A DNA stretch of 64,000 nt from IMG/VR virus record IMGVR_UViG_3300033121_001571. One strand, given 5' to 3'. Within the stretch, counting starts at the first letter, position 1, and the number at the start of each line of letters is the position of its first letter. The stretch comes from a virus. Its lineage: Duplodnaviria; Caudoviricetes. The notes beneath the pieces are model-generated. The model was not told the origin of the DNA, ran no database searches, and saw only the letters and a program-made list of their open reading frames with translations. The position numbers and the translations under genes were made by a program. Below, in pieces: positions 39,444 through 45,708 of the stretch.

Positions 39444-39755
39444 TCAGTTTTTTTCTATTGTTGAAAACAATTCGTGCATTGAAGCCAAATAACGAACTTC
39501 TTCAGCGCAATCTAATTCTTCATAATCACCTTCTGAATTTCTCTTTTTGACTATATTTTCAGCAGCACACTTGTCACAAGTGTGTGTCTTGTCAATTTTG
39601 TTGATCAATGTGGAAACTGACTCGTTGCAATACAAACACTGATCTAGTTTTACCATAATGACTTTAATGAGTTTTATCATAGTAGAAGCAAACACCTTGA
39701 TTGATTCTTGGTTCTTTAGGAGAAGATCTAATACTTTCTTAGTATCATCATTCAT
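39444..39755 (-). CDS. Hypothetical Zn-binding protein (MNDDTKK...)
   Basis: CxxC...CxxC; ORF-track start lies inside tRNA-Gly, so trimmed. Confidence 0.5.
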   Translation of the reverse strand: MNDDTKKVLDLLLKNQESIKVFASTMIKLIKVIMVKLDQCLYCNESVSTLINKIDKTHTCDKCAAENIVKKRNSEGDYEELDCAEEVRYLASMHELFSTIEKN

Positions 39756-39830
39756 GGAGCAGACGATCGGACTTGAACCGACACCATGCAGCTTGGAAGG
39801 CTGCAGCCCTACCAATTAGACCACGTCTGC
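39755..39830 (-). tRNA. tRNA-Gly(TCC)
   Basis: Cloverleaf, loop CT-TCC-AA, encoded CCA. Confidence 0.92.
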
Positions 39831-39831
39831 G

Positions 39832-39906
39832 TGGAGCAGGTGAAGGGAATCGAACCCTTGAAGTTCTCCCTGGCAAGGAGATGCACTACCATTATGCGAC
39901 ACCTGC
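39832..39906 (-). tRNA. tRNA-Gly(GCC)
   Basis: Loop TT-GCC-AG, CCA. Confidence 0.92.
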
Positions 39907-40317
39907 TTGTGTCTTATAGAATAACTAATACTTTCTAGATAGAGTGTATTGCTCTTCTTTGAGCAATGAAACGATAAATTCCCCTGTCTTACAAGCACTC
40001 TTGTCTTTGACGTACTGATCAACAGAATCAAGTGCTTCTTTGAGAAGTTTCATCTTTTCTTTTTCAGAAGCACCTGCCTCTAAGTGTTCATTGATGTTGC
40101 TGATCGGATTAATCTGACAGATGTAACACATTAGCAGTAAATTTCCTGTACGTTGAAGATTGTTTGTTGACGACAACTTGGGCACGTGTGAACATGCACG
40201 CCTGGACGATAGACCATAAATTGAGGTGGATTATGACTTGGATCATGACATAAATTTTTCCATGTATTTTCTTTTTCTGAATTTTTCAATTTGTTATCTT
40301 TGTTCACAAACACTTTG

Positions 40318-40402
40318 CGGTAACTACAGGATTTGAACCTGTGGACCCTTTCGGATCGCCTGTTTAGCAAACAGGTGCCTTAAGCCTCTCGGCCAAGTTA
40401 CC
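40318..40402 (-). tRNA. tRNA-Ser(GCT)
   Basis: Loop TT-GCT-AA, long variable arm. Confidence 0.92.
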
Positions 40403-40424
40403 AACTTAAATTTCCAACATTTAG

Positions 40425-40510
40425 TGGAAATGGAGGGAGTCGAACCTTCAAGGGCTTTTGACCTCAACTGTTTTCTAGACAGCTGCCATCACCAATTGGC
40501 TTGCACTTCC
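40425..40510 (-). tRNA. tRNA-Ser(AGA), A34
   Basis: Stem GCTGT/ACAGT, loop CT-AGA-AA, long variable arm. Confidence 0.8.
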
Positions 40511-40511
40511 T

Positions 40512-40600
40512 TGGAGGAAACGGTGAGATTCGAACTCACGGATGTTTTTAGCATCTGCGGTTTTCAAGACCGCCGCCTTAAACCACTCGGCCACGTTTCC
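40512..40600 (-). tRNA. tRNA-Ser(TGA)
   Basis: Loop CT-TGA-AA, long variable arm, CCA. Confidence 0.92.
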
Positions 40601-40726
40601 ATTAACTTCAATGATTTTCTGCAGTGTGAGACCAATAACACCAAACACAGATCAACTCTTTGCAGAAGAGGCACTTCCAAACGTCTTTTTCAAAGACATT
40701 TTTTCCGCAGCTGCACTGAACGTATT

Positions 40727-41038
40727 TCAAATGACCTCTTCAAAAACTTCCTCTAGAGAGAGCTCGTATTTGTCGTCATCATTGACTGGAGGTGCATCAT
40801 CTGCTGACGGATCACACAGTCCCGGCGTGATGACGACAAATACGTTATCTTTCACAGTGATGACAACTTCTTGCTGCCCCTGCCTACAAGTGTCGTCCTC
40901 TTTCACAGAATCTGTCTCTACCGCTGACGGTTCTTCTTCGTAGACTACGACATCGTCTACTTTCTTCTTACTAGAGAAACTGTGTGAATTTTCACATGCA
41001 CTCAAGAGAAGAGTAAGTAGAACAATCAGCTTCTTCAT
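40727..41038 (-). CDS. Putative lipoprotein
   Basis: MKKLIVLLTLLLSAC signal peptide II/lipobox. Confidence 0.6.
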   Translation of the reverse strand: MKKLIVLLTLLLSACENSHSFSSKKKVDDVVVYEEEPSAVETDSVKEDDTCRQGQQEVVITVKDNVFVVITPGLCDPSADDAPPVNDDDKYELSLEEVFEEVI

Positions 41039-41059
41039 ATGGATATATTAACACGTTGA

Positions 41060-41320
41060 TCAGCGTTTTTCACTCCTGCGGGAGCTTTTTATTTCTTTTG
41101 CTTCGATTAGCTTCAGAAGTCTTGCTCTCTGTTTTTTTGCACCGACTCCTACTCCGAGCCTGACGTCCAGTTGCTCCAACTGTTGTTCAGCGGAAAGTGA
41201 TCTCCACGCAGCATCTCTCTCTATAGCTTCTTTTCGCTTTAGATCAGTAAGATCTGGTCGAGGACCTCCACCCTTGTACTTTCTATAGTTGTTTTTCTTG
41301 CCACTCTTCAGTATGTCCAT
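41060..41320 (-). CDS. Basic hypothetical protein
   Basis: ATG directly follows the tRNA-Arg 3' end. Confidence 0.55.
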   Translation of the reverse strand: MDILKSGKKNNYRKYKGGGPRPDLTDLKRKEAIERDAAWRSLSAEQQLEQLDVRLGVGVGAKKQRARLLKLIEAKEIKSSRRSEKR

Positions 41321-41322
41321 CG

Positions 41323-41394
41323 CGCTTCCGGCCTGAATTGAACAGGCACACCCAGCTTAGGAGGCTAGTGTTCTCTCCGTTAAACTACGGAAGC
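41323..41394 (-). tRNA. tRNA-Arg(CCT)
   Basis: Loop CT-CCT-AA. Confidence 0.88.
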
Positions 41395-41399
41395 ATCTT

Positions 41400-42197
41400 T
41401 TAGTCGCAGTCTTCAGCAACAATTTCTGCTCTTATCTTCATAAGAATCTTACCCAGATGATTCTGACCCTCACCTTTACAGACACCCCAGAAGTTATCTC
41501 CCCACCAATTACCTTCAATTATTCGAGCGTCTCCAGTCTGGAGAAGAAGCTCTCTTAGCATTGGATTTTTGAACTTTTCTCTTACTAGATCTTCCATAAT
41601 GCTAAGCTTTTTAGCATCCCAATCACTTGGTAACTTAGCAGCTGCACCAAGTTTTTTAGCTACATAAGGACTTTGTTGTTCTCTTATCAGATTAATTGTT
41701 TCTTCGTCTGAAAACTTTGATGCTTGGTATGCGTGCTCTACAGAGCGCCAGAGTTTACCGTTGTACTTGATGTTACAAGCATACATGTTAGATAAAAATC
41801 TATAGTTGTCTTTAAATACAGATATCACAGAAGGAGTACATGGTTTTCCTATGTAAATTTGGATGTCAAGGTTAGAGACAGTCTCTATGATGAATTCAGT
41901 TTTCTGAATATCAGAATAAAAAAGCGCAATATCGGTGATTGGTTCGTGTTTTTCGTTCTCTGCGTCTAAAAACTCTATTAAAGCATTTTTTGTGAATGCA
42001 GAAGTTTCTGCAAAACGTTCGGAACGAAATCGACGTGATTTAAGCTTGTATCTAGCACATAGATCTACAACTATGTCTTGAAAACCAAATCCTGCTCTAA
42101 CTAAGCATATAGTGTCATTGGGAAGAGTCTTAACATAAGATTCTATAGATTCAATATCCCTCCACGATCTCTGCCCAAGGAACATTATTTTTTTCAC
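41400..42197 (-). CDS. SLOG(DUF2493-like)-NADAR fusion
   Basis: C-half FLSNMY, SVEHAYQASKF, LLLQTGD, DNFWG, GQNHLGKILM (NADAR/YbiA); N-half MKKIMFLGQRSWRD; GTG start at 42197. Confidence 0.85.
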   Translation of the reverse strand: MKKIMFLGQRSWRDIESIESYVKTLPNDTICLVRAGFGFQDIVVDLCARYKLKSRRFRSERFAETSAFTKNALIEFLDAENEKHEPITDIALFYSDIQKTEFIIETVSNLDIQIYIGKPCTPSVISVFKDNYRFLSNMYACNIKYNGKLWRSVEHAYQASKFSDEETINLIREQQSPYVAKKLGAAAKLPSDWDAKKLSIMEDLVREKFKNPMLRELLLQTGDARIIEGNWWGDNFWGVCKGEGQNHLGKILMKIRAEIVAEDCD

Positions 42198-42199
42198 AG

Positions 42200-42269
42200 T
42201 GCCAGTTAAGAGAATCGAACTCTTCACGAGGTGTTTATGATACACCTTCTCAGACCACTGAAAACTGGC
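42200..42269 (-). tRNA. tRNA-CAT (Met or Ile2), short D-arm
   Basis: Stem GGTGT/ACACC, loop AT-CAT-AA. Confidence 0.75.
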
Positions 42270-42275
42270 TTATTG

Positions 42276-42347
42276 TGATCCCAGTGGGATTTGAACCCTA
42301 CAACTCCTGTTTGAGGGACAGGTGACTTACCATTTGTCGATGGGACC
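42276..42347 (-). tRNA. tRNA-Glu(CTC)
   Basis: Glu-type body, loop CC-CTC-AA. Confidence 0.85.
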
Positions 42348-42353
42348 TCACTG

Positions 42354-43020
42354 TTACCAAGTACCTCGCAACCAGTCAGAAAGTCTCCAAGAGTTTCCTG
42401 TGCGATGGTCTTTTACTTGGTCTTCTTGTGTTCTGTAGGTTCTAATCTTGTCGCCTCGCATCCCAGAACCCACTTGATCTTTTCTGTCTTTTTCTTTTTC
42501 TTTTCTAGATCTCTCTAGTTCTTGTTCACTAAGTTTTGCAGCAAGGATCTTGTATGCTGTTGCTTTGTTTTGGTGCTGAGATCGTTCGTTATCAATTCTA
42601 ACTTGAAGTCCTGTTGGTTTGTGAGTCGCTATTACGCAACTCTCAGTTTTATTTCTGTTTTGACCACCAGGTCCCGAACCTCTCGCTGTTGTGATCTCTA
42701 CATCTCTATAATCGAGAGAAAAGTTTGTTTCATCTGAATCTAAGATAGCAACAGTGACTGTAGATGTATGAACTCTACCACGTTTTTCATTTGGTGGAAT
42801 CCTCTGCCAACGGTGTCCACCAGACTCATTTTTAAATATTTCTTTTACGTTTTTGCCGCTTATAAAAAGCTGTACATAACCCGGTCTTGAATCAACGACT
42901 TGACAGTCAAAGACACCTCTTGACAGAGATGTTTGTGTAAGCTTTCATCTGTTCAGACACAAGTGACTTTGCATCATCGCCGCCTTCAGCAGCTCTTATT
43001 TCTAAGATTATTGTTTCCAT
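42354..43020 (-). CDS. RF1-like class-I peptide chain release factor lacking domain 1, expressed by programmed +1 frameshift (~221 aa)
   Basis: Frame 0 METIILEIRAAEGGDDAK...KRCL*; +1 frame D...ESGGHRWQRIPPNEKRGRVHTS...GSGPGGQNRN...RSQHQNK...IRTY...DHR; GGAG RBS upstream. Confidence 0.9.
42906..42921 (-). promoter_or_regulatory. prfB-type +1 frameshift cassette AAGAGG-TGT-CTT-TGA-C
   Basis: Internal SD, 3-nt spacer, CTT-TGA-C; same architecture as E. coli prfB AGGGGG-TAT-CTT-TGA-C. Confidence 0.88.
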
Positions 43021-43062
43021 TAGTTTTCAACTCCAACTCTCAGAGTTATGTATTAAAAATTT

Positions 43063-43172
43063 GTAGTTGTGACTAGGTTCGAACTAGTAACTAGAGTCCT
43101 TTCAACTCTAACTCTACCTTGCTTTGTTACACAAGACGTCACGTGAACAAAGACTTGAGTTTACACAACTAC
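43063..43172 (-). ncRNA. tRNA-like RNA with a hairpin inserted in the D-loop
   Basis: Acceptor AGTTGTG/CACAACT; T-arm ACTAG-TTCGAAC-CTAGT; D-loop insert CTTTGTT...AACAAAG; anticodon loop TGAAAGG. Confidence 0.6.
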
Positions 43173-43174
43173 AG

Positions 43175-43255
43175 TGCCAGAAGAGGGACTTGAACCCTCA
43201 AGCCTTTCGGCGCCGGCTTCTAAGACCGGTGTGTATGCCGTTCCACCATTCTGGC
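43175..43255 (-). tRNA. tRNA-Leu(TAG)
   Basis: Loop CT-TAG-AA, variable arm. Confidence 0.92.
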
Positions 43256-43375
43256 GTTGAAAAAAAATTCAATTCATAGCTGGCATAGTGCAGATCTATG
43301 CTGTGACTACAGGTCGACTGGGGTTCGGTAACCAGAACACAAACTGACTAAGGGACAGCTTTCCCAACCGACTAG

Positions 43376-43458
43376 TGTCATCGGAGGGAGTCGAACCCTC
43401 ACGTTCTTTCGAACACATGCACCTCAAGCATGTGCGGCTGCCGTTACGCCACGATGAC
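43376..43458 (-). tRNA. tRNA-Leu(GAG)
   Basis: Loop TT-GAG-GT, variable arm. Confidence 0.92.
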
Positions 43459-43464
43459 ATTGAA

Positions 43465-43582
43465 AACGTAATTTTGGGACTCGAACCCATCTCCCCTCGC
43501 AACCGAGATCCGTCTCATGCACGAGTCGAACGTGCCAGTTACTACTCCGTCGAGGCGTAGCGCCAACCTACCCAATTACGTT
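43465..43582 (-). ncRNA. tRNA-like RNA with two T-arms (anticodon loop replaced by a structured domain)
   Basis: Closing stem AACGTAATT/AATTACGTT; T-arms GCACG-TTCGACT-CGTGC and TGGG-TTCGAGT-CCCA. Confidence 0.6.
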
Positions 43583-43584
43583 AG

Positions 43585-43652
43585 AGCCCAATCAAGGAAT
43601 TGAACCTTGTCTCTGCTTATGATCGCAGTGTGTTTCCGTACACTAGTCGGGC
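43585..43652 (-). tRNA. Atypical tRNA-CAT-like (8-nt anticodon loop GATCATAA)
   Basis: D and T arms present; 4-bp anticodon stem CTGC/GCAG. Confidence 0.45.
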
Positions 43653-43739
43653 ACTTGAATTTGTCTCTACTCACTGTTGAAGTGAGCTAACACGCCACGT
43701 TACTGGAACTTCTTCGTTTTGTAAGCGACGTAGAGAAAA

Positions 43740-44047
43740 CTGTTGATTGCTTGATCACTCGGCAGAGATCTCACTCTCTGCACCTCAACAACAAAGTCAC
43801 GTTGTTCTGTCACAGAACTCAGTCGCTAGCTAAGCGACATCAACATTCTGGTGAGAATTTACTCACATGCACCCAAGTTCTGAGTCCATTGTCGGTGCAC
43901 TAGTTACGATAGTGAATAAGGAACTGCCTGATCACTTCGTAACTGACATTACGCTTCCTCATTGTATTAGACCTGACCAGTTCCTGGCGTCAGTGCTTTA
44001 CTCCGAACAGAGTTAAGTTCAGCCACGAGTGATCAAGCAATCAACAG
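43740..44047 (-). ncRNA. Candidate ~308-nt structured ncRNA closed by a perfect 22-bp stem
   Basis: CTGTTGATTGCTTGATCACTCG (43740-61) is the exact reverse complement of 44026-47; many internal hairpins; no ORF; strand inferred from flanking tRNAs. Confidence 0.7.
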
Positions 44048-44121
44048 AGTCGAGAGTGAGAATCGAACTCACATGTTCACGGAGTTTGCAGTTCCGCCGC
44101 TGGCCTTTGGCGTTTCTCGAC
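44048..44121 (-). tRNA. tRNA-Cys(GCA)
   Basis: Loop CT-GCA-AA, U73. Confidence 0.88.
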
Positions 44122-44196
44122 AAAAATCGATAAAACACTTTTCATTCAGTGTCAATCGATTAGCGTGAATCTCAAATTTTAACTTGAGATTCACAG

Positions 44197-44268
44197 TCAG
44201 GAAGGAGGGACTCGAACCCCCGCCCACCGGTTTCCAGAACCGGGAGTCTGCCGCTGACGTACTTCCTG
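44197..44268 (-). tRNA. tRNA-Pro(TGG)-like, atypical loop TC-TGG-AA
   Basis: C1-G72/A73 Pro-type acceptor; stem CCGGT/ACCGG. Confidence 0.65.
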
Positions 44269-44273
44269 ATTGT

Positions 44274-44355
44274 AGTTAACGACAGGATTTAACCTGTATG
44301 CTTTTCAGCGTCCCCTCGCACTTGAAGAGATGTGTCTACTTTCCACCACGTTAAC
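44274..44355 (-). tRNA. Atypical Leu-type tRNA with enlarged anticodon loop (TTCAAGTGC)
   Basis: Leu-like D-loop and variable arm; irregular anticodon arm. Confidence 0.45.
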
Positions 44356-44358
44356 AAG

Positions 44359-44432
44359 CGCTCTCGGTAGGATTCGAACCTACGACCTCACCGTTCGAAG
44401 CGGTGCACTCTATTCCACTAAGTTACGAGAGC
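44359..44432 (-). tRNA. tRNA-Arg(TCG)
   Basis: Loop CT-TCG-AA. Confidence 0.92.
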
Positions 44433-44437
44433 AATTG

Positions 44438-44508
44438 TAACCGCAGTTAGACTCGAACTAACACTTTTACCGTGTCGAGGTAATGTTCTACCTTTGAACT
44501 ATGCAGTC
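44438..44508 (-). tRNA. tRNA-Val(GAC)
   Basis: Loop TC-GAC-AC. Confidence 0.82.
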
Positions 44509-44510
44509 AT

Positions 44511-44585
44511 TGGTGGGAGTGCTTGGAGTTGAACCAAGCTACTCGAGCTTATAAGGCTCGATGGGTCGACCGGTCCCACACTCCC
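44511..44585 (-). tRNA. tRNA-Ile(TAT)
   Basis: Loop CT-TAT-AA, A73, CCA. Confidence 0.85.
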
Positions 44586-44593
44586 AAACTAAC

Positions 44594-44669
44594 TGGTGAC
44601 CTTGACGGGATTCGAACCCGTGTAAAGACATTGAAAGCGTCTTGTCCTGGACCGCTAGACGACAAGGCC
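44594..44669 (-). tRNA. tRNA-Glu(TTC)
   Basis: Loop CT-TTC-AA, CCA. Confidence 0.92.
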
Positions 44670-44677
44670 AAACTAAC

Positions 44678-44754
44678 TGGTGCCACAGGTGAGATTCGAA
44701 CTCACAACAAATCGTTTTTGAGACGATCACCTCTGCCGATTGGGTCACTGTGGC
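44678..44754 (-). tRNA. tRNA-Leu(CAA), no long variable arm
   Basis: Loop CT-CAA-AA, CCA. Confidence 0.85.
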
Positions 44755-44757
44755 AAT

Positions 44758-44833
44758 TGGAGCTAGCGAAGGGAGTCGAACCCTCAACCTACTGCTTACA
44801 AGGCAGGTGCTCTGCCGGTTGAGCTACGCTAGC
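44758..44833 (-). tRNA. tRNA-Thr(TGT)
   Basis: Loop CT-TGT-AA, CCA. Confidence 0.92.
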
Positions 44834-44943
44834 AAACCCATCTCTTGTTGAAAACCAACATCTCCCTTTTGGTGTGTGAGGGTGTTTTTTCTTAAACTAA
44901 AGAGATGGTAAGTAAAGCAAAGACACACGTCTTTTACGTTACT

Positions 44944-45029
44944 TGGTAGCCCTGGTCGGACTTGAACCGACACGTCCTTACGAACAGAGGATTTTAAATC
45001 CTCGGCGTCTGCCTTTCCGCCACAGGGCC
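44944..45029 (-). tRNA. tRNA-Leu(TAA)
   Basis: Loop TT-TAA-AA, variable arm, CCA. Confidence 0.92.
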
Positions 45030-45038
45030 ATGTATCAG

Positions 45039-45111
45039 AGCTACACGTGAGAGTCGAACTCACCGCACCTTGCTTACCATGCAAGGATTTCCCCACGGAA
45101 ATCTGTGTAGC
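45039..45111 (-). tRNA. tRNA-Thr(GGT)
   Basis: Loop AT-GGT-AA. Confidence 0.85.
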
Positions 45112-45116
45112 ATTTG

Positions 45117-45190
45117 AGCTAACAGCGAGATTCGAACTCGCTCAATCTCACTTACGAAATGAGTACTCTGTCCTTACGAGCATTGTTAGC
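45117..45190 (-). tRNA. tRNA-Thr(CGT)
   Basis: Loop TT-CGT-AA. Confidence 0.85.
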
Positions 45191-45195
45191 ACTTG

Positions 45196-45270
45196 GGTGA
45201 AGATCGGGAATCGAACCCTGAACCGACTGGGTCACAACCAGTCATGCAGAACCACTACAACATCTCCACC
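45196..45270 (-). tRNA. tRNA-His(GTG)
   Basis: Loop TT-GTG-AC, G-1/C73. Confidence 0.88.
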
Positions 45271-45317
45271 ATGTTAGAAGACTATAACACCCTTAGAACC
45301 GTGTTACACTCCGCCGG

Positions 45318-45389
45318 CGCCCAAGAAGAGATTCGAACTCTTGCTTTTGGTTTCGTAGACCAATGTTCTATCCACTAAACTACAAGGGC
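45318..45389 (-). tRNA. tRNA-Arg(ACG)
   Basis: Loop CT-ACG-AA. Confidence 0.9.
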
Positions 45390-45394
45390 ATTAG

Positions 45395-45467
45395 TGTTGG
45401 AAGTCAGAATCGAACTGACCTATTCTGGGCTTCAACCAGACGCTTTCACCAGTACAGCTTTTCCAAC
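45395..45467 (-). tRNA. tRNA-Phe(GAA)
   Basis: Loop TT-GAA-GC. Confidence 0.85.
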
Positions 45468-45535
45468 ATTTCAGAGTCTCTCCTCTGTGTCACGTTTTGA
45501 AGCCAACGTTGTGCCCAGCGTAAAGCTGGCCTTCG

Positions 45536-45608
45536 TCGGCCCGGCAGGATTCGAACCTGCGACATCTGCTTTGTAGGAGCAGCGTTACTACCGCTGAACT
45601 ACGGGCCG
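45536..45608 (-). tRNA. tRNA-Val(TAC)
   Basis: Loop CC-TAC-AA. Confidence 0.85.
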
Positions 45609-45631
45609 TGAAGACACAAATTTTCAAAGAC

Positions 45632-45708
45632 TGGTCTGGGTGGCAGGATTTGAACCTGCGGCCCCGAGCTCCCAAGGCTCGTGCGCTACCAGACTACGCT
45701 ACACCCAG
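45632..45708 (-). tRNA. tRNA-Pro(TGG)
   Basis: Loop CT-TGG-GA, CCA. Confidence 0.92.

Follow-up and report, generated by a model that had tools for sequence, protein, structure and literature searches.

A split release factor gene within a phage tRNA array

The window (i.e., the whole 64-kb stretch of giant-phage DNA analyzed here) carries on its minus strand a release factor gene that is distributed over two reading frames and is absent from the ORF track. The initial annotation had drawn attention to this omission, which was borne out by the sequence, by the presence of both frames, and by the conservation of both halves. The features of the locus, from upstream to downstream, are as follows.

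43375 to 43458, minus strand: tRNA-Leu(GAG) in the same array, with synteny kept in the closest phage relatives
43174 to 43255, minus strand: tRNA-Leu(TAG), directly upstream of the release factor gene (tRNA prediction)
43031 to 43034, minus strand: Shine-Dalgarno (SD) sequence GGAG for initiation of ORF0, with a 10-nt spacer to the ATG (read off the sequence)
42910 to 43020, minus strand: ORF0, starting at ATG (43020 to 43018) and consisting of 37 sense codons, METIILEIRAAEGGDDAKSLVSEQMKAYTNISVKRCL (translation and match to the prfA model)
42913 to 42921, minus strand: SD-like stimulator AAGAGG and 3-nt spacer TGT (read off the sequence)
42906 to 42912, minus strand: shift heptamer CTT TGA C with a weak +4 C (CTT, 42912 to 42910; TGA, 42909 to 42907; C, 42906)
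42354 to 42908, minus strand: +1 frame of 184 codons, ending in TAA at 42356 to 42354 (translation and RF1 model)
42275 to 42347, minus strand: tRNA-Glu(CTC), beginning 7 nt past the TAA of the release factor gene (tRNA prediction)

The 3' end of ORF0 reads AAG AGG TGT CTT TGA C, in which CTT is the P-site Leu codon and TGA the sensor stop. Reading TGAC as one step joins ORF0 and the +1 frame into a fused 221-aa protein. The +1 frame contributes the rest of domain 2 together with domains 3 and 4, and contains the motifs HRWQRIPPNEKRGRVHTS (PPN at 42797 to 42789), GPGGQ (GGQ at 42668 to 42660), RSQHQNK, IRTY, and DHR.

The location of the gene inside a tRNA operon, as initially described, was confirmed: tRNA-Leu(TAG) and tRNA-Glu(CTC) flank it, all three genes are on the minus strand, and no promoter-like or terminator-like site was found between them on that strand. 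The array around the gene consists of 26 tRNA genes on the minus strand (39755 to 45708), and the whole window contains 37 tRNA genes in two arrays. An Rfam scan of the region around the release factor gene returned tRNAs only, and neither ARAGORN nor Rfam reported anything over 43063 to 43172 (minus strand), within the 150-nt leader upstream of the release factor start. At 43584 to 43652 (minus strand), ARAGORN called a tRNA with a two-base anticodon (ca), for which the Rfam score was 28.1 bits against a tRNA threshold of 29. Just downstream of tRNA-Glu, a 281-aa ORF (41400 to 42245, minus strand) carries a YbiA/NADAR-like motif (…WRSVEHAYQASKF…), as judged by eye.

Placement of the short release factor gene in a tRNA array was observed in 33 of 58 related phage loci. 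The tRNA-Leu(GAG) isoacceptor type is the one that reads CUU and slips in prfB; by analogy, we infer that the tRNA-Leu(GAG) of the window would be the slipping tRNA at the shift. In two huge-phage loci, tmRNA genes (L056:3169-3520 and L066:1718-2076) lie directly beside the short release factor gene, an arrangement that suggests a combined module for termination and rescue.

An RF1-lineage protein without domain 1

The two halves of the gene match consecutive parts of the RF1 model (prfA profile), with residues 3 to 32 of the first half aligned to model positions 113 to 142 and residues 12 to 181 of the second half aligned to positions 165 to 336; the fused 221-aa protein covers positions 113 to 336 in one collinear stretch. 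The fused protein scored 208.8 bits against prfA, 146.7 against prfB, and 92 against prfH, all of which are under the curated cutoffs (e.g., 423.25 bits for prfA [TIGR00019] and 166.65 bits for PrfH [TIGR03072]); the controls, E. coli RF1 and E. coli PrfH (329.7 bits), passed their own cutoffs. The ranking against PDB sequences was RF1 (161 bits), followed by RF2 (105) and PrfH (59). An AF2 model of the fused protein (pLDDT, 84.5) had ribosome-bound Thermus thermophilus RF1 as its best match (TM score, 0.90; rmsd, 2.2 Å). In this model, ORF0 forms a strand (residues 2 to 12) and a helix (residues 15 to 34), which correspond to the opening strand of domain 2 and its helix alpha5 with the GG..DA tip. 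Neither ORF0 nor the +1 piece could fold alone.

Domains 2, 3 (GGQ), and 4 are present in the fused protein, domain 1 and the C-terminal helix are absent, and the start and end alignment columns coincide with those of E. coli PrfH. The gene is an RF1-lineage class-I release factor without domain 1, which is how the initial annotation had described it. Membership in PrfH was considered and dropped, given the score below the PrfH cutoff and the lack of RtcB.

The reading loop of the window protein is PPN, and that of most relatives is PPT (i.e., the canonical PxT form). RF1-type reading-head residues (Q before the loop, P-x-T/N, and H/Q-T-S) are retained in most family members. The proposal that PPN denotes a changed specificity was not supported: PPT is the commonest tripeptide, PPN is a recurrent and common variant, and there was no association of PPN with the sensor codon, so that the idea of a new specificity tied to UGA was dropped. 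In several lineages (L001, L008, L082, and L024), a 4-residue deletion removes the PxT tripeptide (e.g., QRTSNGRIHSS), while GGQ and the frameshift cassette are retained. Stop codon reading may be changed or lost in these members, and the absence of the PxT loop from some lineages (L001, L008, and L082) implies that not every member can read stops in the manner of RF1.

Conservation of the frameshift cassette

Two IMG/VR scans yielded 327 relatives, which were reduced to 79 distinct phage loci (from IMG/VR or GenBank, and including the window). In 59 of the 79, the full protein requires a +1 shift; without exception, these 59 have a stop directly after CTT, at a fixed distance of 32 codons past the IEIRAAEGG motif. 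The cassette consensus of the phage loci is CGG AGG GGT CTT TGA C. Among loci from bacterial genomes, CTT plus a stop was found in 73 of the 78 that could be analyzed (TGA, 49; TAG, 22; TAA, 2), at the same codon in 66 of the 73. The seven others have a greater distance from the N-terminal motif: the site is ten codons downstream in L146, L147, and L177 (including Thiobacillus denitrificans), and the distance is larger still in L141, L143, L157, and L168, at least partly from inserted residues. Altogether, CTT plus a stop was counted in 132 of about 150 distinct loci of relatives. The codon at the site is always CTT in the frameshift genes and is CTC, CTA, or TTT in the in-frame relatives.

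In most of the 59 phage and 73 bacterial cassettes, a run of 4 nt or more resembles an SD sequence and is spaced 3 nt from CTT. Such a run was present in 48 of the 59 phage cassettes; about 11 of the 59 had no clear run, and the stimulator is therefore not universal. The base after the stop was C in 41, G in 12, A in 5, and T in 1 of the 59 phage loci and C in 62 of the 73 bacterial loci, with T occurring only once across both sets. The prfB-type cassette recognized in the initial annotation (SD-like element, 3 nt, CUU, UGA, and C) is thus present in all its parts in the window, its CTT plus stop is kept in 132 loci, and the homolog search that the annotation had called for recovered the CTT-plus-stop arrangement in most of the phage and nearly all of the bacterial loci.

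The best tblastn match to the window gene was in a 485-kb uncultured phage, which is 46% identical over two aligned pieces and carries CGG AGG GGT CTT TGA C at the corresponding codon; a megablast search of GenBank phages with this region returned no match. Five complete or nearly complete huge-phage genomes (309 to 619 kb) each contain exactly one split gene, and no class-I factor other than the split gene was found in these five genomes. Of the top 120 clusters in the protein database, most start with GGVF[DE], which is the +1-frame reading of GG GGT CTT TGA C/G. These entries, labeled "peptide chain release factor 1," are truncated gene calls.

A 1-nt assembly error or a decaying gene would also leave a frame break, and the break itself is all that speaks for such an artifact. 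The same break, codon, and heptamer recur in more than 130 independent assemblies at 45 to 70% protein identity, among them complete genomes of phages and finished chromosomes of bacteria, with conservation of both halves. Retention of CTT plus a stop at the same codon in so many assemblies is far beyond chance. The comparative data refute assembly error and pseudogenization, the probability of which we regard as negligible, and on this evidence the frameshift is to be regarded as programmed.

Several in-frame relatives (L024, L039, and L031 [at about 2597 to 2599 in each of these three loci], L034, L051, L062, L084, L087, L150, and L153) have an in-frame stop at the place where the cassette sits in other genes. 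L024 and L039 read CTC/CTA TGA CTG, L031 reads TAT TAG ATG, and a further in-frame subgroup shows G-TGA-CT at a site ten codons downstream, which is occupied by CAT CTT TGA C in L146, L147, and L177. Such genes could be versions gated by readthrough, or else the cassettes could be fossils in phages whose stops have been reassigned. Four low-G+C phage copies (L002 [LR756504.1], L075, L081, and L086) contain one or two in-frame TGA codons. Treating TGA as a sense codon hardly improved the ORF coverage of their flanks, and no in-frame TGA occurs in the RNR gene of LR756504.1; the use of genetic code 4 is therefore doubtful for these copies, and programmed UGA readthrough is possible.

Exchange of the sensor stop among TGA, TAG, and TAA

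The sensor stop of the 132 cassettes is TGA in 98, TAG in 30, and TAA in 4. It changes at least 23 times on the tree described below and differs even within near-identical pairs (L134/L155, L152/L158, and L033/L040). No significant link was found between the sensor stop and the loop tripeptide (PPT or PPN), the H/Q position, or the SD-like run. Sensing of UGA had been put forward as the defining feature of the system, a view that these counts do not sustain: the stop flips freely among the three codons, and sensing of RF2 is accordingly not the conserved essence. What is conserved is a weak stop read by a single factor and not UGA as such.

Within the window, real stops comprise 21 TGA, 19 TAA, and 1 TAG. 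Among the 21 TGA stops, just 2 have C as their +4 base, and the context of the cassette is thus unusually weak for this phage.

A third class-I paralogue in Myxococcota

A scan of one genome per prokaryotic species identified 294 relatives, and the best 80 of these 294 were analyzed. These 80 were mostly from Myxococcota and included finished chromosomes of Archangium gephyra, Minicystis rosea, and a Polyangiales bacterium. The initial annotation spoke of a phage release factor; the family is in addition a chromosomal paralogue in Myxococcota and some other bacteria, and the copies in finished myxobacterial genomes rule out a phage-only origin. Thiobacillus denitrificans and four of the myxobacterial genomes possess, next to the short factor, a canonical RF1 as well as a canonical prfB, the latter with its own CTT TGA C at codon 23 to 31. 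The short factor is therefore a third paralogue in these genomes. A profile search of 151 genomes from the phylum of Archangium gave scores that did not separate the short factor from canonical RF1.

RtcB was absent among ten ORFs flanking the gene in four or five myxobacterial loci (including L115, L118, L122, and L172), and no conserved gene neighbor was found among the selected flanking ORFs scanned in the myxobacterial loci. The window likewise contains no RtcB, and the neighbors of the gene there are tRNA genes and the NADAR-like ORF.

Phylogeny and origin of the cassette

In a FastTree phylogeny of 169 rows with only six RF1 references, the short factors formed one clade (support, 99) that was sister to RF1 (support, 96), with RF2 and PrfH outside. 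The phylogeny suggested in the initial annotation thus placed the family beside RF1 and apart from RF2 and PrfH. Its deepest branches consist of phage genes without a frame break, in which the site has CTC GAA or TTT GAG. Rows from phages and from bacteria are intermixed, an indication of either repeated transfer or the binning of phage contigs into metagenome-assembled genomes.

The shift site aligns to AEARRW|RVE of E. coli RF1, i.e., to the end of helix alpha5 in domain 2, and the prfB site is at codon 23 to 31 in domain 1; the nonhomology of the two positions, noted from the outset, is therefore upheld. Insertion of a single T into CTT GAN, after Arg-Arg-Gly codons that resemble an SD sequence, would create the cassette. 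An origin independent of prfB, as proposed initially, is plausible given that the deepest branches are in frame and that the site differs in position from that of prfB.

Comparison with known systems

Programmed +1 frameshifting at CUU-UGA is a textbook peculiarity of RF2. The window cassette and that of prfB are alike in heptamer, SD-like stimulator, spacing, and weak +4 C (E. coli, AGGGGG TAT CTT TGA C; window, AAGAGG TGT CTT TGA C), and both genes encode class-I release factors. They differ in that the window factor belongs to the RF1 lineage, that its site is at codon 37/38 in domain 2 and not at codon 23 to 31 in domain 1, and that a UGA sensor coupled to an RF1-type product would not be self-regulatory. 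In addition, TAG is the sensor in 23% of the cassettes described here and in none of 8,164 prfB genes (PMC12421855).

RF1 (prfA) is the best match in sequence, profile, and fold, and the two share GGQ and RF1-type third-base residues; the loop is of the PxT type, with Asn as its third residue in the window. In contrast to RF1, the window factor is missing domain 1 (about 110 residues) as well as the C-terminal helix, carries a deletion of 7 residues within domain 2, reaches about half of the prfA cutoff (209 versus 423 bits) with partial model coverage, and needs a frameshift for its synthesis. PrfH resembles the window factor in its N- and C-terminal boundaries and in its size of about 200 to 220 aa with GGQ. 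The identity to PrfH is 28%, however, the reading loop is RF1-like and not of the PrfH form, and there is no adjacent RtcB, which adjoins prfH in E. coli, as checked for comparison. We know of no frameshift in prfH.

The class-I factors of recoded phages (Lak, Agate, and Jade) are similar in being phage factors located in translation or code change modules; unlike those phages, the window phage follows the standard genetic code, and half of its genes end at a TGA that is a real stop. Borges et al. (preprint 10.1101/2021.08.26.457843) described RF1 or RF2 in phages with reassigned stops and mentioned no frameshift. A 2025 survey of >12,000 genomes reported frameshifting for prfB and none for prfA (PMC12421855), and the RF1 family was also described without frameshifting elsewhere (PMC1586002). 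Our search of the literature outside subscription journals found no published description of the family. In bacteria, the CUU-UGA +1 switch is known only from RF2; here it occurs in an RF1-derived factor and at another site.

Proposed mechanism and alternatives

The reading that we favor, with a probability of roughly 0.6, is that this stretch of the window encodes one 221-aa RF1-lineage factor that is gated by a frameshift and likely acts as a backup terminator. Ribosomes would start at the ATG at 43020, read 37 codons, and reach CUU-UGA-C. Termination by RF2 at the UGA would leave only the 37-aa fragment. If the UGA stayed unread for long, peptidyl-tRNA-Leu would re-pair from CUU to UUU, a slip helped by the SD-like AGAGG three bases upstream, and translation of the +1 frame would then give the full factor. 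By analogy with prfB, such a slip, and an output that rises with slow termination at the sensor stop, are most likely.

The product would end translation at UAA and UAG as RF1 does, but lacking the domain for contacts with RF3 and the L11 stalk, and would serve as a backup terminator working without RF3. Specificity for UAA and UAG is the simplest expectation and is probably correct, judging from the conserved Gln, Pro, and Thr/Ser of the reading head. In the window phage, in which TGA and TAA are about equally frequent as gene ends, the factor could relieve host RF2 of work at UAA when RF2 is limiting. A product restricted to UAA and UAG combined with a UGA sensor would amount to cross-regulation by host RF2 and not to self-regulation of the prfB type. 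The free interchange of TGA, TAG, and TAA sensors is not an obvious consequence of such a restricted factor and counts against this reading.

That interchange is easiest to understand for a factor with broad or changed specificity, which would read UGA or all three stops and shut off its own synthesis as RF2 does, because any stop then works for feedback. The sensor has switched at least 23 times without a matching change in the reading loop, even in near-identical genes, and replacement of Thr by Asn, Ser, or Gly at the third loop position is frequent. On the other hand, Pro is kept as the first residue of the loop, an SPF loop like that of RF2 occurs in no member, and conservation extends to the RF1-type third-base residues (Gln and Thr); in RF1, such residues exclude G at position 2. 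A factor accepting G at positions 2 and 3 would read UGG as well, and TAA, which every factor can read, is the rarest sensor (4 of 132). We consider self-regulation of this kind unlikely. Somewhat less probable again is a rescue factor in the manner of PrfH or ArfB, which would free peptides from stalled or damaged ribosomes and be switched on by frameshifting when ribosomes queue at stops. The shared boundaries with E. coli PrfH (i.e., neither domain 1 nor the C-terminal helix), the loss of the PxT loop in several lineages, and the phage tmRNA genes adjoining the gene in L056 and L066 are in line with rescue; the score below the PrfH cutoff (92 versus 166.65 bits) and far higher against RF1, the absence of an RtcB partner from the window and about five myxobacterial loci, and the conservation in most members of decoding residues that a codon-independent factor would not need argue against it.

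A frameshift could also occur at a fixed low rate that senses nothing and merely keeps a potentially toxic factor scarce. Overexpressed release factors are harmful in Bacillus subtilis (PMC12421855), some cassettes have no SD-like element, and the choice of stop looks nearly neutral. Yet all 132 cassettes have a stop codon and never a rare sense codon at the site, and a weak +4 base, with the strong +4 T almost absent, is the signature of competition with termination; a constitutive set point is thus improbable, and more so than either self-regulation or rescue.

Implications for phage and myxobacterial translation

The short factor adds a third type to the class-I factors of Myxococcota and is the sole class-I factor in five huge-phage genomes, and it is relevant to the question of how phages ensure that translation terminates. 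Hundreds of database entries (170- to 195-aa "RF1" fragments) are misannotated. The natural UGA, UAG, and UAA versions constitute a built-in experiment on what the sensor measures, and carriers available in culture (Archangium gephyra, Pyxidicoccus fallax DSM 14698, Minicystis rosea DSM 24000, and Thiobacillus denitrificans DSM 12475) make the idea testable.

More tentatively, and with considerably less confidence than in the reading favored above, the family may constitute an undescribed class of stop-gated emergency release factors, i.e., minimal RF1 derivatives that are independent of RF3 and made only when ribosomes linger at a sensor stop, gated by +1 frameshifting in the majority of the family and perhaps by UGA readthrough in some of the in-frame genes. 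Such factors, which would perhaps read all three stops, might allow huge phages and myxobacteria to sustain termination under depletion, trapping, or inhibition of the normal factors. The presence of a second, independently placed cassette in an RF1-derived family would mean, if its independent origin (plausible as judged above) is accepted, that feedback of termination efficiency on release factor synthesis evolved more than once.
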